A DNA stretch of 21,802 nt, taken from the NCBI GenBank assembly GCA_001786395.1, contig MFWN01000051.1, forward strand, positions 22,807 to 44,608. Reading direction: 5' to 3'. Shown here in pieces: positions 1,513-21,802 of the stretch. The stretch's first letter is position 1, and every line of letters starts with the position of its first letter. The DNA is from Candidatus Pacearchaeota archaeon RBG_13_36_9 (lineage in GTDB: Archaea; Nanobdellota; Nanobdellia; Pacearchaeales; GW2011-AR1). The notes under the pieces are model-generated. The model had not been told where the DNA came from and did not search any database. It was given only the letters and a program-made list of their open reading frames with translations. Position numbers and translations under genes: made by a program.

Positions 1513-4083
1513 ATGAATTTTAATTTTAAGAAGATTACATCAGTGATAGCGAGCGCTGTGATGCTTGGAAGCACTATAGGCTTTGCTGCTGCAGCAAATT
1601 ACCCTGCTCCTTTTGTACAAGGAGGAGCTGCAAACGTGGGTATTGTCATGGGAGCAGATGCCGCAAATAGTGACTATTTAGCTGCTGTAGGTTTAGGCCA
1701 GGCTTTGCAAGCTGAACTTGCAAAACAAACTGCCACAACCACAACAACCGGTGGTACAACTTCAGGAGAAGGAGTCAATATGGCTACTTCTGCCAGAGGA
1801 CTGTACTATGGCGATGCTTTGAATGTTGCAAGAACAACTCTGACATCTTCAGAGTTACCAAATGTCCTTGCAGATGGAACATTCGGAGATTTGACAGGCA
1901 CAGAATACACTTATAACCAGCAAATAGTTGTAGGCAACACAGTCACTACTTTTGACACCAGCGGAGGAGACCTAGATGACCCTGTTTTGTATCTAGATGT
2001 AGGAACTGTTGCAGGCGACCCACTATATAACTATACATTAAGTTTCAACAAAAACCTTAATGTATCAGACTCTACAAATGTACAAGGACAAAAGATAAGC
2101 ATCCTTGGTGTAGACTATATTATAGGGGCCGGTTCGACAAACACTACACTTTATTTATATGGCTCTGGAGAGACTATAGTAGTTTCTCAGGATGAGGCTC
2201 AGACAGTTTCTATCGGGGGCGATGACCATGTAATAGAGTTAGTAACTACAACTGGAACAAACACCGCGAAAATAAGTGTTGACGGCTCAACAAGGTCTGT
2301 TACAAAAAGTAGCAGGTATCAATTCCCAGGGGATGTTGTTGTATATGTAAAAGACGTTACACATCCATCTTACCAGGGTGACTTGAGAAGCGTCGAACTT
2401 ATAATTGGAGCAAAAGCTTTGAAACTTGAAAACGGGAAGAAGGCAAAAACTGGAGCAGAGGAAGCATCCATAAAAGAGACAAATGTAGTGATAGCTGCTG
2501 CAGAGCATGGAGTTATCTCTGGACTTACAGTCCAGGTAGCTATGGCTAACAGCGAAACAGACCACTTGGCTGCAGGAGATTCCTTCACAGACCCTGTTTT
2601 TGGAGGATTAAGCGTACAGCTCTCGGGCGCAGTGCCAGCACTAGATTCTGAAGCTAGAGGAACAATAAAAGTTGACACAGACAACAGCAGATTTGGATAT
2701 CTTACATTTACCAGCGCAAAAGCTGGAAGTGCAGGAGAACAAAAACTGACTTATGCATACGACAACGATACTTCTGATAGCACTACACAGCCATTACTGG
2801 CTCACCAGACTATAGCAAGTGCTGACAAAGGACACATATGGGTCGTTGAAGGACAAAACGCAAAAGAAGGCGACTGGATTGTTGTTAACCAGGGAGATTC
2901 TGGAGTTATCTTAGAAATTGATGACATTGAAAATGACCCTGACGCTTTGACCATAGATGTTACTTTGACAGATGCTATAACACAGGTTAGCGAGACAAAA
3001 ACTCTTGCAAACGCCACTGGAGGATTCACCAAAGAAGTCAGCATGTTTGGCGGAACTGGTTACACCATTTACGCAAACAGAGCAGGCACCACTCTTAACA
3101 TAACTTGGGATTCAACTACTGCAACAACAGTATTCCCAAGAATAAAGTTGAAAGATGGCGGATACCTTGCTTTACTAACTGACGAAACTATTGCAAATGG
3201 AACAAGCATAATCCTTCCAAATGGAGACACTACACTAACAACAAGCGGAACAAAGATAAGCAACGAAACAGGCTATTTAACAGTAGGAGAGATTAACTGG
3301 ACTGTCTATAATAATGCAGGTTCAGCTGAGATAGTTGGAATTGAAGCAGGAACAACTGATTGCAATTTTAGTGCTGCAGCAGGACCAGCTGTCTTATTTA
3401 TTGAACCAAAGAAATGGGACGATTCAACATATGGAGATTTCATATGCGTGCCATTGACAATAACAAGCGGCTCAAGCGCTGAGATAAAAGTAGGCACTCC
3501 AGTAGTTAATGGAACAGGCTCTGGTTTCAAGACTTTCACATCAGATACCTACAAGAAGCAAGCTGTAGACCAATACGGTACACTTGTAACGTATGAAGAC
3601 AGAACTAATGAGAACGGGGCTGCTACTATTGCATACCCTGCATCTCAAATGAAGATAGATACCTTCTTTACTGAAGTGGGAGCAACTGTAACGCCTGGAT
3701 CAGGCGGAACAGGAAGTGTCGAGGAACTAGGAAACTCAGCTGTTACAGATGCTGAAGTTTCTAGTGTACAAGAGAAAAACCTTATCGTAGTTGGAGGCAG
3801 CTGCATTAACAGCGTAGCATCTAAAATACTCGGTGGCAGCTATTGCGGACCTGCTTTCACAGACGCAACAAAAGGAAATGGAACTGGCGTTGGCGCAGAC
3901 CAATTCCTTATAAAGGTAGTTGATTCCCCTTATACAACAGGAAGAATCGCTATGCTAGTTGCAGGATATGAAGCAGCAGACACAACAAAAGCTGTAGAGT
4001 ACCTAAAGAACGAGGGACCAGTTTCCACTACTGTAGGTACAGAGCTGAAGAAAGTTACTGCAACCTATGCTGACGTAGAATAA
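1513..4083 (+). CDS. S-layer protein (Methanococcales MJ0822-like S_layer_N / S_layer_C architecture)
   Basis: The ORF track gives 1495..4083, but ATG 1513 has the RBS. Signal peptide: MNFNFKKITSVIASAVMLGSTIGFAAA. The N-terminal region ANYPAPFVQGGAANVGIVMGADAANSDYLAAVGLGQAL and the C-terminal region EKNLIVVGGSCINSVASKIL...GRIAMLVAGYEAADTTKAVEYL match the conserved ends of archaeal S-layer proteins as I recall them. The protein is Thr/Gly/Ser-rich with many NxS/T sequons and 4 Cys. It has no C-terminal TM anchor. Confidence 0.8.
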   Translation: MNFNFKKITSVIASAVMLGSTIGFAAAANYPAPFVQGGAANVGIVMGADAANSDYLAAVGLGQALQAELAKQTATTTTTGGTTSGEGVNMATSARGLYYGDALNVARTTLTSSELPNVLADGTFGDLTGTEYTYNQQIVVGNTVTTFDTSGGDLDDPVLYLDVGTVAGDPLYNYTLSFNKNLNVSDSTNVQGQKISILGVDYIIGAGSTNTTLYLYGSGETIVVSQDEAQTVSIGGDDHVIELVTTTGTNTAKISVDGSTRSVTKSSRYQFPGDVVVYVKDVTHPSYQGDLRSVELIIGAKALKLENGKKAKTGAEEASIKETNVVIAAAEHGVISGLTVQVAMANSETDHLAAGDSFTDPVFGGLSVQLSGAVPALDSEARGTIKVDTDNSRFGYLTFTSAKAGSAGEQKLTYAYDNDTSDSTTQPLLAHQTIASADKGHIWVVEGQNAKEGDWIVVNQGDSGVILEIDDIENDPDALTIDVTLTDAITQVSETKTLANATGGFTKEVSMFGGTGYTIYANRAGTTLNITWDSTTATTVFPRIKLKDGGYLALLTDETIANGTSIILPNGDTTLTTSGTKISNETGYLTVGEINWTVYNNAGSAEIVGIEAGTTDCNFSAAAGPAVLFIEPKKWDDSTYGDFICVPLTITSGSSAEIKVGTPVVNGTGSGFKTFTSDTYKKQAVDQYGTLVTYEDRTNENGAATIAYPASQMKIDTFFTEVGATVTPGSGGTGSVEELGNSAVTDAEVSSVQEKNLIVVGGSCINSVASKILGGSYCGPAFTDATKGNGTGVGADQFLIKVVDSPYTTGRIAMLVAGYEAADTTKAVEYLKNEGPVSTTVGTELKKVTATYADVE

Positions 4084-4090
4084 AGTTAAA

Positions 4091-4125
4091 TTTTCTTTTT
4101 TTCTTTTTTTCTTTTTTGTTTTTTA
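4091..4125 (+). terminator. Oligo-T terminator region after the S-layer gene
   Basis: ttttctttttttctttttttcttttttgtttttt lies immediately downstream of the stop. Archaeal termination typically occurs at T-runs. Confidence 0.5.
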
Positions 4126-4227
4126 ATCTTGTTACTCAAAACTTTCTGAAATTGTATATTTCAGCCTATAAAAATGCTTAAAAGGAGGGGTGTTTTAGGA
4201 AAGGCAAATAAAAATACCTGATTGGAC

Positions 4228-4680
4228 ATGAGATTAAGATTAATAAATATTAGCTCTTTGATAACTCTTTACAATGGCATTTATGCAATGGCTTTTGGAA
4301 TATTTATGATAATATTCAGCAGGTTTTTGATTAAAAAATATTTCGAGCCGTTTCCGGAGATTTGGGAGATTCTTGTTAAAAAATGGATAAGGGACCTCTC
4401 CCAGTATCATCTAATTTTAATCTATACTGGGTTTCTCTTGATTTCATTTGGAATATTTATTATCTACCTGTCAGCTTTTATAATGAAAAGAAAGGACAAT
4501 CTTGCCTGGGCAGTCTTATTTTTCGGCGGGCTTATCGGATGGGCAAGCATTTTTGTAGTAAATATACTTGCAAAAAACTTCATAATGATTGTGCTTAGCT
4601 TTCTTGGATGGGCAAGTTTTATTATAGGGATGGTTATTCCAATAAAGTATTATCTTCAAAAGGGGTATCCTAAATTTTAA
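4228..4680 (+). CDS. Small polytopic membrane protein (about 4 TM helices), unknown function
   Basis: The ORF-track start 4222 is TTG, and ATG is at 4228. There are four long hydrophobic segments (AMAFGIFMIIFSRFLI, LILIYTGFLLISFGIFIIYLSAFI, AVLFFGGLIGWASIFVVNIL, IMIVLSFLGWASFIIGMVI). Confidence 0.6.
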   Translation: MRLRLINISSLITLYNGIYAMAFGIFMIIFSRFLIKKYFEPFPEIWEILVKKWIRDLSQYHLILIYTGFLLISFGIFIIYLSAFIMKRKDNLAWAVLFFGGLIGWASIFVVNILAKNFIMIVLSFLGWASFIIGMVIPIKYYLQKGYPKF

Positions 4681-4732
4681 TCTCTATTGAACTTATAGAA
4701 TAGTTTTTAAACTGACAGATTCTTATTAAAAA

Positions 4733-5317
4733 ATGAGAAAAATAGTCACCTCGCAAGAGAAAGAAAAAAAAGACAGAAGAAATAAGATTCTAATTGGAAT
4801 TATTTTGGTAATTCTAATGGTTCTTAGCACTGCAGGCTATGCCTTTTTCTCAGGAGAAAGAGAGAATGGCAGCAGCGAGAAAATAACCTACAACGGGATA
4901 AATTTTGTCCGCGGCGATAGCGGAGTATGGGCTTTTGAGCTGCAAAATATACAATTTTATACGCAATACAATCCTCAAGAAACAGCAAATATACCTTCTT
5001 TAATCCTTCGCTCTCCTGGAGATTACAGCGGGCAGCCATTGTTTTTCCTTGGCCAAAGCGGTGCCAGGCGAGAAATAGAGTATAACTTAAGGAATATTGT
5101 TACAAGGTCGCAAGAAGGATGCATTCCCGGATATGAGAAAAGATGCAGCAACGAAACCCCAATTAAGAACTGTTCAACTGAAAATATAATAGTCATTGAA
5201 GAATCCAATGATACAAGAATCACTCAGGAGGAAAACTGCATCTTTATAAAAGCTCCGTATGAGAATCAGACATTAGTCGGAGATGCTTTTATCTTCAAAT
5301 TACTGGGTGTACAATAA
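4733..5317 (+). CDS. Signal-anchored extracytoplasmic protein, paralog of the next gene (unknown family)
   Basis: Basic N-terminus, one TM helix (ILIGIILVILMVLSTAGYAFF), then an ectodomain with 4 Cys and several NxS/T sequons. It shares the motifs YNGINF, YNPQETANIP and IIVIEESNDTRI with 5327..6061. Confidence 0.65.
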   Translation: MRKIVTSQEKEKKDRRNKILIGIILVILMVLSTAGYAFFSGERENGSSEKITYNGINFVRGDSGVWAFELQNIQFYTQYNPQETANIPSLILRSPGDYSGQPLFFLGQSGARREIEYNLRNIVTRSQEGCIPGYEKRCSNETPIKNCSTENIIVIEESNDTRITQEENCIFIKAPYENQTLVGDAFIFKLLGVQ

Positions 5318-6644: not shown

Positions 6645-8297
6645 CTATTTTGCCGTTATTATCCTTCTTGCTACCAAAATTATCGCTATGATTAACACTA
6701 GGTTAATCACAACAATCAGCCAGATAAACCAGTTTTCCCTCAAATTATCCGTGATGACTGAGCCGGTTACAGGGGACGTAGCTGCGCTTTTTTCTATTGC
6801 AACAGATACTTCCTGTTCTTCGCTTTCTCCTGTTCCAAAATCTGTCCTTATTTTGAAGAATTGCTCTCCTGCGGTGTCTTTGCCAACATTCAGGTAAACT
6901 AGAAAGTCCTGCGAACTTCCTGCATCCAGAGTTATCAGCCTGGGCTCTATCTTATCAAGACTTGCCCAGGAACTATAATCAAGCACAGACAAAACATAAG
7001 CTGTTTTCTCGTCGCCTGTGTTTTTTATTGTTCCTTTGATTTTAAGCTGTTCTCCTTCCACAGCATCTGACTCGAGAGCAGCAGTTATAGTTGCCCCCAG
7101 GTTCTGCTCAATTTCGCAGTTTCCCTTGATCTCTATAGGGTATTCTACGGTCTTAAGCTCTCCGAATTGGTCATCATTATCATCGTAGTCGTACTCTATC
7201 TTGAACTTAAGCTTGTAGTTTCCCTCTTGCAAATCACTTGGAACTGTTACAGGGAAAGTTACTTTCTCTGCTTTATCGTCCCAGTCTAACTTGGATATCT
7301 CCCTTGAGACTTCAGAACCAAAGACAGAACCTAAAAGTGTTACTTTTATCTTGTCTTCCCTGGCTCTTCCTACGTTTGCAATCCATAAGCCCGCGTCTAT
7401 TGTTGAGCCGCAAGTTAAAAGCTCCGGAAGGTCTGTCTTTGTAACAACTACATCTGTTTTATCCCTTTCTATCTGCAAAGGAATTCCCTCTACAGCGTCC
7501 AAGGATGCAGATTTTTCATTGTCTCCAACAACAGTGCATATCTCTTCCTCGCCATCGTCATCATCATAGGCTTTTATGTAAAGAACATAACGAGTGCCCC
7601 TCTCTAAGTCGTAAGGAACCTCGAATGTGAATTCTATTTCACTGTAGTCATTGCTGTCTATATCTACTGTATCATCTTCGCCTATATCCAAGAATTCTTT
7701 TGTATCTTTATCATATATATCCCACTCTATTCTTGCAGTCCGGTCATTATCATCGTCGTTGTTTTTTACCTTAACTGTTAGGGTTATCTCATCCTGAGGA
7801 TACCATTTCCAGTCATCATCTGAAGATGAGCCACTTTCATCAATGCTTCTTATCTCAAAAACAGAGTTGTTGACTGGCCCGTTTTCACAATAACTTTTCT
7901 TTGTCCTAAAAGTTATAGATTTTGTCACATTTTCATCAGAGGCGTTACTAGTTGCTTTTATATCCAAATTTACAGAATAAATTCCATAGTCCAATGCGTC
8001 TATGCTATCTGGGTTTACTGATGCAGAAATTGCTTCATTTTGACCTGCAGCCAGTGTAAACGTATATTTATCAAGTGTAACAAGTACTTCTTTATCTCCA
8101 TCGGTTATGGATATAACTGAAGGGATAACAAAGTTAGCTGTTTCGTTTCCAGTGTTAGTTAGGGTAATTTTTGCGATATCCGTAGTTTGTGTGAACACAA
8201 CAACTGCCGGATCAACTGTAAAACCTACGCTAGCACTTGCAATCGCTGATAGCAAAATAGTTGTCAATAAAATCAAATTCAAAAATTTAGCTTCCAT
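6645..8297 (-). CDS. Secreted cell-surface protein with repeated beta-sandwich-like modules and a C-terminal TM+basic sorting tail (putative archaeosortase substrate)
   Basis: Signal peptide: MEAKFLNLILLTTILLSAIASA. Internally repeated modules end in the similar motifs FTFEVPYDLERGTRYVLYIKAYDDDDGEEE and VTFPVTVPSDLQEGNYKLKFKIEYDYDDNDDQ (CARDB / COG1361-style). There are acidic D-rich loops and 4 Cys. The C-terminus is ...SPVTGSVITDNLRENW-FIWLIVVINLVLIIAIILVA-RRIITAK. Confidence 0.75.
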   Translation of the reverse strand: MEAKFLNLILLTTILLSAIASASVGFTVDPAVVVFTQTTDIAKITLTNTGNETANFVIPSVISITDGDKEVLVTLDKYTFTLAAGQNEAISASVNPDSIDALDYGIYSVNLDIKATSNASDENVTKSITFRTKKSYCENGPVNNSVFEIRSIDESGSSSDDDWKWYPQDEITLTVKVKNNDDDNDRTARIEWDIYDKDTKEFLDIGEDDTVDIDSNDYSEIEFTFEVPYDLERGTRYVLYIKAYDDDDGEEEICTVVGDNEKSASLDAVEGIPLQIERDKTDVVVTKTDLPELLTCGSTIDAGLWIANVGRAREDKIKVTLLGSVFGSEVSREISKLDWDDKAEKVTFPVTVPSDLQEGNYKLKFKIEYDYDDNDDQFGELKTVEYPIEIKGNCEIEQNLGATITAALESDAVEGEQLKIKGTIKNTGDEKTAYVLSVLDYSSWASLDKIEPRLITLDAGSSQDFLVYLNVGKDTAGEQFFKIRTDFGTGESEEQEVSVAIEKSAATSPVTGSVITDNLRENWFIWLIVVINLVLIIAIILVARRIITAK

Positions 8298-17235: not shown

Positions 17236-18201
17236 TTAATCTTCTGGCATATATATATGTTTTTCTTCGCTTAAAATAGTAATATAGTTATAACTTTCAA
17301 TTGTGTTAGGAAATTCATTTTCTAATTCCTCTATTAACTTTAATAAATGATTTAAATTTTTTACATGAAATTCCATTTCTAAAATTTCTCCGCCTATAGT
17401 TTTATCTATCTGATATATATTCGGATGTAGATGTGCAAAAGTTAATATCTGATCAAAATTATTCCAGCGAGACAAACGAAATTCTGTTTTATAAAATTCG
17501 TAACCTAAAAGATTAATATCTATAATTGCTCTATAGCCTTGAATAATTCCTTTTTTCTCTAATTGTTTTATTCTATAACTGATTGATTCAGCAGTTTTAT
17601 CGGTTTTTTTCGAAATTTCTAATAAGCTCACTCTTGCATTTTGTGCGAGTTCTCTTAAAATTAAAATGTCTATTTTATCAATTTGTTCTTGTTTTTTCCC
17701 GCCTAAGATTCTAATTTTGGAACTATCTTCTTTACCGACAATATAAGCTTTTGCAAAATGATAAATAGGGGAATAAATACAAACTTTATAATCTTTTATG
17801 CTTGGTAAGTAGTCTTTAAGAATTTTTTCCCAAGAATCATAAAATTGGTAAATATCTTTAATTGCAAGACCTAAGGCAACATCCCAATTTCCTGCAGTTA
17901 AAACAACCGCCCAAATATTCTTTTGGATTTTTAAGTAGTGGACGAATTCTTTCTTTTTTTGGGGATTTATATTTTTCAATTTTAAGTAAATCCTAAAAAT
18001 TGTATAGCCTAACTTAGAAGTGTCTATCATAGTAGAATATCCCTTTACAATGCCTTCTTTTTCTAGCTGTTCAATTCTATATTTAACAACTTGTTTTGAG
18101 AGTTTTACTTTTTTAGCTATTTGCGAATAAGTTTGTCTAGCGTTTATATCTAATTCATATAGGATCTTCCTATCTTTTAAATCAAGTTTTATTTTTAGCA
18201 T
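17236..18201 (-). CDS. Single-chain double Lrp/AsnC-family transcriptional regulator (two HTH + ligand-domain repeats)
   Basis: Repeat 1: LDLKDRKILYELDINARQTYSQIAKKVKLSKQVVKYRIEQLEKEGIVKGYSTMIDTSKLGY. Repeat 2: IDKIDILILRELAQNARVSLLEISKKTDKTAESISYRIKQLEKKGIIQGYRAIIDINLLGY. 321 aa, about twice the size of a normal Lrp/AsnC protein. Confidence 0.8.
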   Translation of the reverse strand: MLKIKLDLKDRKILYELDINARQTYSQIAKKVKLSKQVVKYRIEQLEKEGIVKGYSTMIDTSKLGYTIFRIYLKLKNINPQKKKEFVHYLKIQKNIWAVVLTAGNWDVALGLAIKDIYQFYDSWEKILKDYLPSIKDYKVCIYSPIYHFAKAYIVGKEDSSKIRILGGKKQEQIDKIDILILRELAQNARVSLLEISKKTDKTAESISYRIKQLEKKGIIQGYRAIIDINLLGYEFYKTEFRLSRWNNFDQILTFAHLHPNIYQIDKTIGGEILEMEFHVKNLNHLLKLIEELENEFPNTIESYNYITILSEEKHIYMPED

Positions 18202-18320: not shown

Positions 18321-19004
18321 ATGGAAGAAATAGAATTTAACCAAAGAAAATCATTGTTATACAGCCAGACATTAACGCCCACAGAAGAAGGATATAATTT
18401 GGGGATAGAATGGGGAAAGAATTATACAATAGAAATGAATAAATGGGAAGTTACAGGAGAAAAAAAGGGTTTACTTAAATTACTTAATTCTCAAGTTGAA
18501 CAATACAATGAAGAAATGGCAAGAGAATTACTTAAAAGATGGGATTTTAATCAAGAAAATATAGAACGTATACTTAAAGAAATAGAAAATATGCCTCAAG
18601 CACCAGTTATTTCTTCAAAAAAAGACGCAAGAAAAAGTTATGGTCTTAATCTTTCAAATCAGCAAATAGAAGAAATTAGAAAGAAATATGATAGTCTAAG
18701 AAAAAAAGGCTATATTAATTTAGAACTTGTACAACAAAGAGCTTGTAGGCTAAATAGGCTATTAGAAGAAGCTGTACTTCAAACCTCACAATGTATCCAT
18801 AAACCAACTGATAAAATGTACTCATTAGACAATAATTCAAGGGGGATTATATTAATATTTTTCACAAATCCTTCTCGGTTAAGTGAAAGCACAAATTGTT
18901 TAACATATTCAATATGGTCTACTTCTGAGATAGATTTAGAAGAAAAAATTGGAAGAATACGCTATTATGTTAAATTGAACTGGAACTTACCTGGACCTAA
19001 ATAA
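18321..19004 (+). CDS. Hypothetical protein
   Basis: 227-aa ORF with non-repetitive composition, divergent from the Lrp-like gene. No family recognised. Confidence 0.5.
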   Translation: MEEIEFNQRKSLLYSQTLTPTEEGYNLGIEWGKNYTIEMNKWEVTGEKKGLLKLLNSQVEQYNEEMARELLKRWDFNQENIERILKEIENMPQAPVISSKKDARKSYGLNLSNQQIEEIRKKYDSLRKKGYINLELVQQRACRLNRLLEEAVLQTSQCIHKPTDKMYSLDNNSRGIILIFFTNPSRLSESTNCLTYSIWSTSEIDLEEKIGRIRYYVKLNWNLPGPK

Positions 19005-19053
19005 AAATCCAATTAACAGCTTTATGTTCCATTATTATTAAAAAATAGCCCAA

Positions 19054-19809
19054 TTATTTTTTCTTTTCTTTCTCTTCATTATTTTCAGCAGGCTTCTCTG
19101 ATTTTTTCTCCTTACTTTCACTTGCTTTTTCTTCCTTTGCTGCAGTTTTTTTCTTTGTGCCTTCTTTTGCTTCAGCTTTCTTCTCTTCTTTCTTCTCAAA
19201 TTCCATTTCTTTCCCTAAAATCTCGCTGAATTTTTTTCCAAGAATCTTCACAAATGGCTCTGCTTCTGGCTCAAAAATAATTCTCTTTTCTTCTGTCTTG
19301 AATTTGAACCTTTTTTTAAAGAAGAAGTCCTGCAAGGAATTAACCTTTTCCTCATCTCCTTCAACTTTTCTTTTTATTGTGAACTCATACTCTATGTCTT
19401 TTCCTGAAAGAGGGTTGTTAAAGTCTACAGAGACCCTTCCTCCTGAAACACTTAATATCTTTGCAATCATGCCATCCAGATTAAGCATCAGCCCCGGAAC
19501 AGGGTTCATCTCCTGTTTTCTGAATGCAGAGAGGGGGATTATTCTTATAAGGGCAGGATTTCTCTTTCCAAACCCTTCTTCAGGCTCCACTTTAATCCTG
19601 TATTTTTGACTTATTTCTTTGTCTTCCAGCTGATTGTCAAACCCTGGAACAACCATTCCCCCGCCTATGCAAACAATTAGTGGCTGAACTTCTACCCCAA
19701 GGTTTATCTCCTTGGCTTTTTCCTTTATGTTGGTATCAAAGACAGCTCCGTTTGCGTATCCGATAAATTCTATCTCAACAAAATCGCCTTTCTTGGTTTT
19801 TTCAACCAT
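19054..19809 (-). CDS. FKBP-type peptidyl-prolyl cis-trans isomerase (archaeal SlyD-like, with insert-in-flap domain) plus K/E-rich tail
   Basis: KGDFVEIEFIGYANGAVFDTN...GGGMVVPGFDNQLEDKE...EEGFGKRNPALIRIIPLSAF...GGRVSVDFNNPLSGKDIEYEFTI matches the FKBP fold with an IF chaperone insert. The last roughly 46 aa are K/E/A low complexity. Confidence 0.85.
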   Translation of the reverse strand: MVEKTKKGDFVEIEFIGYANGAVFDTNIKEKAKEINLGVEVQPLIVCIGGGMVVPGFDNQLEDKEISQKYRIKVEPEEGFGKRNPALIRIIPLSAFRKQEMNPVPGLMLNLDGMIAKILSVSGGRVSVDFNNPLSGKDIEYEFTIKRKVEGDEEKVNSLQDFFFKKRFKFKTEEKRIIFEPEAEPFVKILGKKFSEILGKEMEFEKKEEKKAEAKEGTKKKTAAKEEKASESKEKKSEKPAENNEEKEKKK

Positions 19810-19839
19810 AAAAACTCTAAAGAAGGGGGGTTTAAAAAC

Positions 19840-19950
19840 TTAGTTCTTTTTCTTTCCTTCCTTTATCTCTTTAGGAAGATATTCATAACCAGACTCTACA
19901 AACATTAACAAGCCATTCACAGCTTTTTGACTAAATCCACTTGGCGGCAT
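19840..19950 (-). CDS. Mini-ORF (36 aa) retaining only the N-terminal module of the MPxCGF family (Cys replaced by Ser)
   Basis: Hand translation gives MPPSGFSQKAVNGLLMFVESGYEYLPKEIKEGKKKN*. It starts 1 nt after the stop of 19952..20356 (TAAAATG junction) and ends 30 nt before the FKBP start. Expression is unproven. Confidence 0.4.
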   Translation of the reverse strand: MPPSGFSQKAVNGLLMFVESGYEYLPKEIKEGKKKN

Positions 19951-19951
19951 T

Positions 19952-20356
19952 TTATTTTTTTGTCCCTATATTTAATTGATTCAAATATTGTGCTAACTCT
20001 TTCATATCATCTGGTTTTCCTTCTAATTCAGAATAAAACTTATTGTCCATTTCAAAATAAAGATTATTTATTTTTTCAATAAGCTCTTCATAATTCTCTA
20101 TCCCTTCTCTTTGAAGTAATTTGTAAAATGCACAAGCATATTCAGTTAAGGTTCTTATTAATTCTCTTACCTCTGAATCTTCAATTGCCAAAAGTTCCTT
20201 TTGGAATCTTCCCATATCTTCTATTTCTTTATTTATTGTCTCTTCTGTCATTTGATTTTTCTTTTTTGAACGTTCAATGATTCCGTGTTCAATTAAACCT
20301 CTATGTAAAAGTTTCATGCCTTCAAGCATCTCTTTATTAAATCCACAAAAGGGCAT
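19952..20356 (-). CDS. Hypothetical helical protein, MPxCGF family (long form, copy 2)
   Basis: 134 aa. It is a paralog of 20482..20880, sharing the N-terminus MPFCGFNKEMLEGMKLLHRGLIEHG and the C-terminal motif YSELEGKPDDMKELAQYLNQLN. No known family recognised. Confidence 0.65.
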   Translation of the reverse strand: MPFCGFNKEMLEGMKLLHRGLIEHGIIERSKKKNQMTEETINKEIEDMGRFQKELLAIEDSEVRELIRTLTEYACAFYKLLQREGIENYEELIEKINNLYFEMDNKFYSELEGKPDDMKELAQYLNQLNIGTKK

Positions 20357-20357
20357 T

Positions 20358-20480
20358 TTACTTTTTCCCTAACTTAGGTTTATTTTCTTCAGATTCCCTA
20401 ATGGCTTTCAGTCTAACTAATCCTTTATGAAATTCTTTTATGCCTTCAAGCATTTCTTCATTAAATCCGCATATGGGCAT
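20358..20480 (-). CDS. Mini-ORF (40 aa) retaining only the N-terminal module of the MPxCGF family
   Basis: Hand translation gives MPICGFNEEMLEGIKEFHKGLVRLKAIRESEENKPKLGKK*. Its first 24 nt are identical to the start of 20482..20880. It is flanked on both sides by TAAAATG junctions. Expression is unproven. Confidence 0.45.
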   Translation of the reverse strand: MPICGFNEEMLEGIKEFHKGLVRLKAIRESEENKPKLGKK

Positions 20481-20481
20481 T

Positions 20482-20880
20482 TTAACTTCTTAGATTTATC
20501 TGATTTAAATGTTGCACTAATTCTGCCATGTCCTCTGGTTTTCCTTCCAGTTCACTATAATATTTTTTATCCATAGACTCAAAATAAAGCAACATATTAT
20601 TAATTATTTCTTGATAATTTTTAATCCCATTCTTTCTCATAATCATATAAAATCCCATTGAATATTTTATAATCCCTTCTGTTAAGATTCTTTTTGCACT
20701 GTCGTCTATTTTAGGAATTTCGGCTAAAAGTCTGGTCATATCTGAGATTTCCCTTTTTATCCCCTGGTCTACTGTCTCTCCATTTTTTTCTGAACGAAAT
20801 TTAAGTCCATGCTCTACAAGTCCTTCGTTAAAAGACAGTAAGCCTTCTAACATTTTTTCATTAAATCCGCATATGGGCAT
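20482..20880 (-). CDS. Hypothetical helical protein, MPxCGF family (long form, copy 1)
   Basis: 132 aa: MPICGFNEKMLEGLLSFNEGLVEHG...YSELEGKPEDMAELVQHLNQIN. An AGGAG Shine-Dalgarno-like element (plus-strand ctcct at 20890-20894) lies 9 nt upstream of the ATG. Confidence 0.65.
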   Translation of the reverse strand: MPICGFNEKMLEGLLSFNEGLVEHGLKFRSEKNGETVDQGIKREISDMTRLLAEIPKIDDSAKRILTEGIIKYSMGFYMIMRKNGIKNYQEIINNMLLYFESMDKKYYSELEGKPEDMAELVQHLNQINLRS

Positions 20881-20990
20881 TTTATGTTTCTCCTTAGTTT
20901 AATATAAAGCGCGTTTATTTATATAAAATGTTTTAGGTAATATTTTTATGAAAACACAATATTTATAACTATAAGTTCATTTATGTAAAA
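20881..20990. promoter_or_regulatory. Divergent promoter region between the MPxCGF array and the second double-Lrp gene
   Basis: AT-rich with oppositely oriented TATA-like boxes around a gcgcg core (aatataaaGCGCGtttatttatataaaa, about 20901-20928). A further tttataa at 20962-20968 lies 23 nt before ATG 20991. Confidence 0.4.
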
Positions 20991-21802
20991 ATGGATAAGA
21001 AAGATGAAAGGATATTAAAAGAGCTTATTAAGAACTCTAGAAGCCCTTTAACAAAATTAAGTAAAAAGGTAGATCTTTCTAGAGAAAACATTTACTATAG
21101 AATTCAGAATCTCATAAAAAAGGATATTATAAAAGATTTTGTAGTTAACATGGATTACAGAAAGCTTGGATTCAGTCATTATGTTATTTTTTTGCAATAC
21201 GATAAAATAACTCTTGAAAAAGAAAAAAACATTATAGACTATTTAAAAAATAGCGGAAATGCGAGCTGGATAGGCCCATTAACTGGAAAAATGAGTTTAT
21301 GCTTTGATGCTTATTTTAAAGACACGGATGAGTTAGATAATTTTTTAACAGATTTTTTAACAAGATTTAAAGAAAATATCGGGGAATATCTTGTTTTAGA
21401 AGTTTTAGAGTCAGAATATTTTTTTAATAAGATTATCAGTCAAACAGAGATTCAAAAAGAAAAAGAAGTTATTAAGAAAAAAGTTAAGCTTGATAAAACT
21501 GACTTAGCTATTTTAGAAAGATTAAACAATAATTCCAGAGTTTCTTATGTTGATATATCAAGAGGCTTAAGGCTGACGCCAAATGCAATGAAACAAAGAA
21601 TCAAACATCTTGAAAAAAATAAAATTATTTTAGAGTACTCCTTGTCATTAAATTATAAGGCATTTGGATTTGAATGGCAGGGATTGCAAATAAAACTAAC
21701 AAATCCAAATAAAGAGATTGAAACAAAAGTCAAGGACTATTTTAAAGAAAACAAAAAAGTTGTTTTCTTTTATCAGTATAAAAAATCCGGAATCTATGAT
21801 TT
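20991..21802 (+). CDS. Single-chain double Lrp/AsnC-family transcriptional regulator (3' end beyond window)
   Basis: Not in the ORF track because no stop is reached. Hand translation is open from ATG 20991 to the window end. Repeat 1: DKKDERILKELIKNSRSPLTKLSKKVDLSRENIYYRIQNLIKKDIIKDFVVNMDYRKLGF. Repeat 2: LDKTDLAILERLNNNSRVSYVDISRGLRLTPNAMKQRIKHLEKNKIILEYSLSLNYKAFGF. Confidence 0.8.
   Translation, partial: MDKKDERILKELIKNSRSPLTKLSKKVDLSRENIYYRIQNLIKKDIIKDFVVNMDYRKLGFSHYVIFLQYDKITLEKEKNIIDYLKNSGNASWIGPLTGKMSLCFDAYFKDTDELDNFLTDFLTRFKENIGEYLVLEVLESEYFFNKIISQTEIQKEKEVIKKKVKLDKTDLAILERLNNNSRVSYVDISRGLRLTPNAMKQRIKHLEKNKIILEYSLSLNYKAFGFEWQGLQIKLTNPNKEIETKVKDYFKENKKVVFFYQYKKSGIYD

Follow-up and report, generated by a model that had tools for sequence, protein, structure and literature searches.

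The 21,802-nucleotide (nt) stretch of Candidatus Pacearchaeota archaeon RBG_13_36_9 analyzed here (the window; assembly GCA_001786395.1, contig MFWN01000051.1, positions 22,807 to 44,608 of the forward strand) carries an array of four adjacent minus-strand open reading frames (ORFs) that belong to an undescribed, compact and strongly conserved family of small all-alpha proteins. Sequence comparison resolved the four genes into separate, anciently diverged subfamilies, designated LA, S1, LB and S2, each of which has orthologues in many DPANN genomes. In gene order, they encode an LA-type long protein of 132 amino acids (aa) predicted to form a five-helix bundle (20482..20880); the S1 microprotein of 40 aa, made up of an MPxCGFN cap, one amphipathic helix and a charged tail (20358..20480); an LB-type long protein of 134 aa, an ancient paralogue of LA annotated as A3K73_03405 (19952..20356); and an S2-type protein of 36 aa (19840..19950), which alignment to the MPPSGFSQKAINGLL family showed to be C-terminally truncated relative to the usual 56-62 aa. 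We propose, with a probability of roughly 45%, that these genes encode translationally coupled helical subunits that assemble via a shared helix, and that the single-helix S1 acts on LB or LA as a partner or modulator. This model is inferred from gene spacing, synteny, natural fusions and the predicted LA structure. What is new is the sequence and the fold, which have no known relatives, and the mechanism is a proposal.

The coordinates and lengths of the four ORFs, which had been read from the DNA in an initial annotation, were confirmed, as were their shared MPxCGF or MPPSGF N-termini, the C-terminal YSELEGKP(E/D)DM motif common to both long proteins and the TAA-A-ATG sequence at every array junction. 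LA and LB were 49% identical (E = 2e-43). The sequence TAAAATGCC was found exactly four times in the 21.8-kb window, once at each array start, where about 0.47 occurrences would be expected by chance. The shared module was also visible at the DNA level as a 70-nt direct repeat, with 81% identity between the S1 and LB copies and 64% between those of LA and LB; the nearest relative of the S1 DNA was the 5' end of its downstream neighbor LB. Both mini-ORFs, S1 and S2, were missing from the protein collection and the deposited annotation, and the locus tags of the two long genes are consecutive (A3K73_03410 and A3K73_03405), leaving no tag between them for S1.

Family loci were sampled from species-representative genomes (53 loci) and from further contigs, scanned for motifs, and tabulated by gene order. 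There were 498 LA homologues, mostly 130 aa long and 65-82% identical, and when 1.84 billion representatives at 50% identity were searched exhaustively with a profile, only 114 were recovered at E ≤ 0.001. At least five subtypes were distinguished, namely LA, LB, S1, S2 and an additional long type, LC, present in loci L065 and L067. The initial annotation had suggested that a two-gene unit of one long and one short ORF was duplicated long ago. This was not supported, since the window LA was 72-82% identical to LA elsewhere and the window LB 81-84% identical to its orthologues in L011, L046, L065 and L067, as against 49% between the two. Nor did the pairing hold: S1 and S2 are different subfamilies, and the pair that recurs is S1 followed by LB. 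The window order LA-S1-LB-S2 was one arrangement among several, others being LC-S1-LB-LA-S2 (L065), LC-S1-LB-S2 (L067), S1-LB-LA (L011) and S1-LB-S2 (L042 and L044). Overall, arrays comprised one to five paralogous genes and a separate, dedicated regulator.

Two variants of this arrangement were observed. In L067, a cassette consisting of a TrmB-type regulator and LC occurred twice, at 1592-2861 and 3730-4999, as a recent segmental duplication in which the two LC copies were identical 143-aa ORFs, showing that duplication continues to shape the arrays. In L054-L057 (about 3970-4535; 627-1190 in L056), the LB-like proteins were 185-187 aa long with two helices internally duplicated and lacked the MPxCGF N-terminus; one or two S1 microprotein genes, with the motif retained, preceded them.

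The AlphaFold 2 (AF2) model of LA was a five-helix bundle with a predicted local distance difference test (pLDDT) score of 91.8 and a predicted template modeling (pTM) score of 0.84. In it, the shared module corresponded to a short N-terminal coil (MPxCGFN) followed by helix 1 (residues 8-33), which was an integral, high-confidence part of the bundle. Numerous polar and aromatic residues were invariant, among them C4, G5, F6, N7, G20, E23, H24, R29, E44, D47, R50 and E54, together with R64, Y73, Y78, D104, Y108 and D117. The module helix is amphipathic, and its conserved Gly13 and Gly20 lie one heptad apart, a spacing that, on our own reading, may suit tight helix packing. In very divergent members the MxxCG[FY]N extreme N-terminus was the sole feature retained. 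A weak match (E = 9e-4) to P0234 may reflect chance or convergence: this repeat protein of 353 aa, whose N-terminus looks like a signal sequence, contains KGINKFGPGIVEHGLP five times, a sequence similar to the core GLVEHGL of the module.

The statement in the initial annotation that the N-terminus matched no described family was borne out. With Pfam-A and NCBIfam profiles, nothing above cut-off was obtained for LA, LB, S1, S2, LC, the 186-aa LB-like proteins or the multi-module forms; the best E-value for any subtype was no better than 0.005, and all were far under the curated cut-offs. The family profile gave no significant match among PDB sequences (best E = 0.27). Foldseek with the LA model likewise returned best E-values of 2.6 (PDB) and 1.8 (BFVD), small helical bundles being hard to discriminate by fold search. 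LA and LB had no match in PADLOC-DB v2.0, and a literature search on N-terminal peptide strings and on DPANN small-protein families found no description of the family. Four familiar candidates were rejected. A type II toxin-antitoxin pair would not account for one to five paralogues plus a separate regulator, and no such domain was found in Pfam or PADLOC. The analogy with amidotransferases that use an N-terminal nucleophile (MCG...) failed on the all-helical fold and on the motif being internal in some fusions. The N-terminus has no hydrophobic leader of the kind expected of a lipoprotein or signal peptide, and a bacterial microcompartment (BMC) or encapsulin targeting peptide was discounted because shell genes were absent from the surroundings and the helix forms part of the bundle itself. 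The small helical families of archaeal 'genomic dark matter' (overview in PMC6393860) are likewise small, all-alpha, unannotated and found mostly in uncultivated lineages. The present family differs in its unusually high conservation, with 65-82% identity across DPANN archaea, the candidate phyla radiation (CPR) and Bacteroidota, in the invariance of its extreme N-terminus, and in having regulators dedicated to it and paralogues that are microproteins.

The initial annotation had argued that both mini-ORFs were maintained by selection rather than decaying, which was upheld for S1 and failed for the window S2. A profile search for S1 yielded 75 clusters of 31-54 aa, apart from one of 70 aa, with a median of about 40 aa and most between 37 and 45. 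Their consensus is MPxCGFNxEMLEGxxxFHxGL followed by a charged tail. The subfamily to which the window S1 belongs is exactly 40 aa long, and its near-identical relatives keep the tail RESEENKLKLGKK. Nei-Gojobori counts over codons 1-24 of 11 S1 genes gave a proportion of nonsynonymous differences (pN) of 0.06-0.27, against saturated synonymous differences (pS) of 0.5-1.0. The same constraint was seen in L054-L056, where the adjacent long protein has lost MPxCGF, and gene conversion from the neighbor therefore cannot explain the conservation. S1 aligned to residues 1-24 of LA and LB; it is a small protein homologous only to helix 1 of these proteins and lacks the rest, as is typical of microProteins. 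It has its own Shine-Dalgarno (SD)-like sequence, and in many loci no other ORF stands between it and the promoter. In 11 of the 12 S1-carrying loci, S1 lay immediately ahead of LB (7 loci) or of an LB-like gene (4 loci). S1 comes after LB in L050, and L057 has a tandem S1-S1 pair. On these comparisons, S1 is a bona fide microprotein gene under purifying selection. The S1 segment MPICGFNEEMLEGIK precedes a tryptic peptide.

The S2 subfamily, MPPSGFSQKAINGLL...EGKKTEG.AIK.EL.NI..YL..FKL, is normally 56-62 aa long, or 113-116 aa where internally duplicated, and has Ser at the Cys position of the family. Full-length S2 genes gave pN values of 0.02-0.19 against pS values of 0.4-0.9 over codons 1-34, and of 0.11-0.35 against 0.5-1.0 over codons 35-56, so that S2 in general is, as far as codon comparison goes, a separate and constrained two-helix subfamily. 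The window S2, in contrast, stops at EGKKKN, 20 residues early, without the conserved last helix, and has G21, Y24 and P26 at positions occupied in the remaining short-form members by C (8/8), D (7/8) and L (7/8). Because of this early stop and these substitutions at conserved positions, it is probably a truncated, possibly decaying copy. Truncated S2 copies also occurred in L019, L021 and L049. A GC-rich, structured-looking stretch without an Rfam match at the gathering threshold was noted in L001 (4860-5100), 3' of the S2-long gene; the rest of that genome is AT-rich.

The spacer between stop codon and ATG was exactly 1 nt at 24 of 30 adjacent family junctions, including all three internal junctions of the window, so that the junction described in the initial annotation proved to be conserved in related genomes. 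The 12 nt upstream of family starts usually read (A)GGAG(A/G)xxTAAA, and the SD-like sequence of each downstream gene sits within the final codons of its upstream neighbor. A review (PMC12548453, citing Huber et al. 2019, 2023) describes translational coupling, in both Haloferax and E. coli, of gene pairs whose spacing is -4 to +1 nt. The junctions of the window and 24/30 overall fall within this spacing of termination-reinitiation pairs. They resemble the coupled gene pairs for heteromeric complexes described there in having both genes on the same strand, a 1-nt spacer and an SD-like sequence inside the end of the upstream gene. They differ in that the partners here are mutual paralogues, one of them a single helix.

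In the window, a divergent regulator lies upstream of the array on the plus strand (20991..21802). It is partial, running off the end of the window, and is a tandem Lrp/AsnC-type winged-helix regulator. It matched the NCBIfam models LysM, LrpA and AsnC in two stretches (E = 1e-17 to 1e-19, under the equivalog cut-offs), and BLAST clustered it with the tandem Lrp proteins of about 320 aa from other loci and with a paralogue in the window (17236-18201) that is above cut-off twice for the Pfam models HTH_24 and HTH_AsnC-type. These similarities place it in the Lrp/AsnC family. A divergent winged-helix regulator was present upstream of nearly every DPANN array, usually 100-120 nt away. Tandem Lrp regulators were found at 87-149 nt in 14 other loci and at 224-542 nt in 4 more, making 19 with the window. 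A TrmB-family regulator (about 248 aa), also upstream and divergent, occupied this place in 11 loci of the gene-order table and was assigned by Pfam in L061, L063, L065 and L067. CPR-labeled loci had another upstream protein of about 284 aa which, by reading alone, resembles a winged-helix regulator.

The 110-nt divergent region between regulator and array (20881..20990, minus strand) was conserved and is inferred from intergenic comparison to hold the promoter and operator. It contains the motif GTTATAAATATTGTGTTTTCATAAAA (20944-20969), a TATA-like TTTTATATAAAT (20917-20928) and an SD-like AAGGAG (20890-20895). The first two are the window versions of TATAAATATTTAGTTTTTGTAAAA and TTTTATATAAG, which were found at equal positions across 15 Lrp-type intergenic regions. 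TrmB-type loci (L001, L011, L019, L042, L047, L049, L052, L053, L061, L063, L065 and L067) had a perfect palindrome, CCCCTGTACAGGGG, flanked by two TATA-like boxes within an intergenic region of about 110 nt; it is conserved from species to species and is likely the operator. As 18900-21802 had no Rfam match, the conserved 5' ends do not correspond to any known RNA element, and with the synonymous sites of the module saturated, the conservation is at the protein level. A scan for sigma-70 promoters and terminators was uninformative, the host being an archaeon.

Natural fusions linked the module to the long proteins directly. An S1-like module was fused in frame to LA several times with varied linkers: none in P0006, about 25 aa in P0005, and others in P0122 and L032. 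The same fusion pattern was judged from match offsets in P0123, P0129 and P0179, and P0205 and P0207 had two or three tandem modules. The AF2 model of the P0005 fusion (pTM 0.79) was confident in the extra helix over residues 11-20, a value that concerns the helix itself and carries no contact information. Such Rosetta-stone fusions, together with the 1-nt coupling and the S1-then-LB synteny, support physical association via the shared helix. In the proposed mechanism, the 1-nt spacing would allow termination-reinitiation coupling and hence near-stoichiometric synthesis; the paralogues would form a hetero-oligomer through the shared helix; S1, with its one helix, would serve LB (or LA) as a subunit or modulator, much as a microProtein acts on its parent; and a ligand-sensing regulator would switch the operon.

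Three observations weigh against this model. Many genomes carry a single LA or LB gene without a partner, so hetero-oligomerization cannot be obligatory. The S1 tails were weakly constrained, with an omega of about 0.5-0.6 in close pairs, and diverged fast enough to be unalignable between subfamilies. The spacer itself could be partly a by-product of duplication in an AT-rich genome of a unit made up of ribosome-binding site (RBS) and module. The GGAGAAAATAAA-ATG context is also found ahead of the first genes of arrays, so that the TAA belongs to this duplicated RBS-plus-module unit, and TAAAATG, with 15 matches in the AT-rich window against about 10 expected, starts unrelated genes as well (for example the ORFs 709-1068 and 10018-10350), which makes the array junction partly a genome-wide start context.

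MicroProteins are small single-domain paralogues that modulate a larger parent by heteromerization, with Id proteins and LITTLE ZIPPER as eukaryotic examples. S1 is alike in comprising only the first helix of the long proteins, in lying beside its closest relative, LB, and in being under purifying selection, and the fusions suggest that it acts on the long protein. It differs in being prokaryotic, in sharing an operon with its presumed target, and in having a parent that is not a known transcription factor. If the assembly model is true, the arrays would be a natural system in which single-helix microproteins evolve by partial gene duplication and act on their parents in prokaryotes. The genomes of DPANN archaea and CPR bacteria are tiny, and a multi-gene array with its own regulator is therefore unlikely to be dispensable in them. 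Also unusual are the 65-82% identity across archaeal and bacterial phyla, the invariant extreme N-terminus in a protein with no described family or fold, and the presence of a microprotein under purifying selection, with two subfamilies often missed by gene callers.

Relatives were also found in bacteria. In 11 distinct loci (L003, L005, L009, L010, L018, L020, L028 and L069-L072), a small MxxCG[FY]N protein was encoded beside a membrane protein of about 560 aa, and in 10 of these a second membrane protein of about 220-300 aa was identified, sometimes fused to the first. The metagenome-assembled genomes (MAGs) were labeled Bacteroidota, Cytophagia, Latescibacterota, Pirellulales and others, and each had a single family member; the triad was also present on a 3.7-Mb contig. 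It was kept despite rearranged gene order and strong divergence, only MxxCG[FY]N and the helix pattern being left in L070 and L071. The polytopic protein of about 560 aa was 52% identical between the two loci compared and had no match in Pfam (including SSF), NCBIfam or PDB. A few Joint Genome Institute (JGI) records name it 'Na+/proline symporter' or 'Na+/pantothenate symporter', and its N-terminal DDFFxAYKKVG motif recalls, on our reading, proteins of the SSS family. Assignment to the sodium:solute symporter family was nevertheless not supported, no Pfam SSF match and no PDB relative having been obtained. No homologue of the bacterial membrane partners was found in the window or in any DPANN or CPR locus; a 550-aa ORF of the window (6645-8297), considered as a counterpart, was unrelated.

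Most bacterial loci had defense-gene neighbors and the window and DPANN loci had none, counts that stand without a statistical background. GajA (E = 1e-166) and GajB (E = 1.7e-149) lay 13 nt upstream in L069, and other flanks were Cas3 and SoFic (L009), NsnA/GmrSD (L010), an MmeI-type methyltransferase with DUF4062 (L070), a relaxase (L018), IS1595 (L071) and a DUF433/DUF5615 toxin-antitoxin pair (L005). Compared by context only, the triad is like known defense-island cassettes of a membrane protein and a small soluble partner in its position among Gabija, CRISPR-Cas3, SoFic, NsnA and restriction-modification genes; unlike them, its proteins had no PADLOC match, and its membrane proteins are lacking in the window and in DPANN and CPR loci. 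By this context, the three-gene cassette, none of whose components matched Pfam, PADLOC or PDB, is a candidate uncharacterized defense-island system. LA was 63-74% identical between archaeal and bacterial MAGs, and in a rough neighbor-joining tree, in which 130 residues resolve poorly, the membrane-linked LA proteins formed two small clusters inside the DPANN/CPR diversity, a placement compatible with horizontal transfer. Functional leads are limited to the invariance of Cys4 and His24 and to the association of bacterial members with two membrane proteins in defense islands.

Several other explanations of the array were weighed against the assembly model. The mini-ORFs could be non-functional leftovers of partial tandem duplications that are merely still open. 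The truncated and substituted window S2, the further truncated copies and the absence of both mini-ORFs from the deposited annotation point that way, but full-length S2 is strongly constrained over 56 codons, and S1 forms 75 clusters of narrow length with saturated pS against low pN, a conserved tail in the subfamily of the window, its own SD-like sequence and, in many loci, first place after the promoter. As a general account it is unlikely; taken gene by gene, it is barely credible for S1 and an even bet for the window S2. That S1 is a cis-acting leader ORF controlling LB expression, its peptide without a function of its own, would suit its place directly upstream of LB with a 1-nt spacer and often first after the promoter. 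It is highly improbable given conservation at the protein level that is strongest in the N-terminal helix and not near the stop codon, the homology of S1 to helix 1 of LB, the in-frame fusions of S1-like modules to LA, and the S1-after-LB and tandem S1-S1 loci. The initial annotation had instead pointed to a recognition handle: the module would be free to bind, for example, the product of the co-oriented FKBP gene, a chaperone, and the mini-proteins would be decoys. The FKBP-type peptidyl-prolyl isomerase with its IF domain (19054..19809, minus strand) is genuine by Pfam (FKBP_C 37.1 bits and FKBP26_IF 64.2 bits, both above cut-off), it starts 30 nt after the S2 stop on the same strand, as had been stated, and it is probably co-transcribed with the array. 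The persistence of MxxCG[FY]N in very divergent members also fits a handle. Yet tblastn with the window FKBP gave no match in the 67 other family loci, so the linkage is not conserved, the module helix lies within the bundle in the AF2 model at pLDDT > 90, and the motif is internal in natural two-module fusions, so that we consider a handle very unlikely. The broader idea that the mini-proteins may be decoys or partners fits the in-frame fusions of an S1-like module to LA. On these locus comparisons the FKBP is outside the conserved system and its adjacency is specific to this genome; it would be a chance neighbor, plausibly brought there by the rearrangement that removed the 3' end of S2.

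The bacterial loci suggest a different role, in which the family is part of a horizontally mobile defense or conflict system. Bacterial LA would be the soluble component that acts as sensor or regulator for a pair of membrane effectors, and the DPANN and CPR loci would be expanded, regulated arrays of paralogues. The conserved triad, its flanks, the cross-domain similarity of LA, the variable composition of arrays and the duplicated cassettes all argue for it. However, the triad proteins have no PADLOC match, L020, L028 and L072 have no defense flanks, the identity across phyla (65-80%) exceeds what is usual for a conflict gene, and DPANN loci lack the membrane partners and lie among housekeeping genes (FtsZ, NusG and L11 in the window; GatDE and SecY near other DPANN loci). 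We therefore regard it as unlikely. If the association does reflect function, it would imply a new membrane-based defense cassette and a possible antiviral or conflict role in DPANN. Less likely again is the fuller scheme in which an unrecognized, horizontally mobile defense or conflict system has the MxxCG[FY]N family as its soluble sensing or regulatory component, working in bacteria with a symporter-like membrane effector pair inside defense islands and rebuilt in DPANN and CPR as ligand-regulated arrays where S1 tunes the assembly of the long subunits; such tuning, if true, would parallel in prokaryotes the microProtein regulation of eukaryotes. Finally, the module might bind a metal or Fe-S cluster via the invariant Cys4 (with Glu23, His24 and Asp47), possibly bridging subunits, in an operon for metal, redox or Fe-S handling. 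The invariance of C4, E23, H24, E44, D47 and E54 is consistent with this, as are the neighborhoods of L065 (genes for a Cys-rich helix-turn-helix (HTH) protein, NifS, DUF1858 and NifU lie downstream of the array in the same orientation), L067 (NifU, DUF1858, a NifS-like gene and a radical-SAM gene) and L061 (rubrerythrin, hemerythrin and desulfoferrodoxin genes). This is quite improbable, as such context was found at three related loci only, each chain has a single invariant His and a single invariant Cys, S2 has Ser in place of the Cys, and the LB-like proteins of L054-L057 lack CGF. Linkage to Fe-S genes as a general feature was rejected, tblastn with NifU and NifS giving matches only in L065/L066 and L067/L068. 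The HTH protein of L065 (6159-6524, 121 aa) has a C-terminal Cys cluster (CSCEVC...CGC) and a weak DUF134-like match, and lies between the array and the NifS-DUF1858-NifU operon.

Further features were observed on the far side of the window S2. The FKBP has a long, low-complexity, Lys/Glu-rich C-terminal tail. The second tandem Lrp/AsnC regulator (17236-18201, minus strand), about 0.85 kb beyond the FKBP, is complete, with 321 aa and two HTH_AsnC units. Between the two lies an orphan ORF of 227 aa on the plus strand (18321-19004), in the lowest-GC stretch of the window (about 27%), for which there was no Pfam match and no homologue in any collected locus. Further away, at 13901-14680 on the minus strand, a 259-aa ORF has an N-terminus that reads like ribosomal protein L11, followed by a long, low-complexity, Ala/Lys-rich C-terminal tail.

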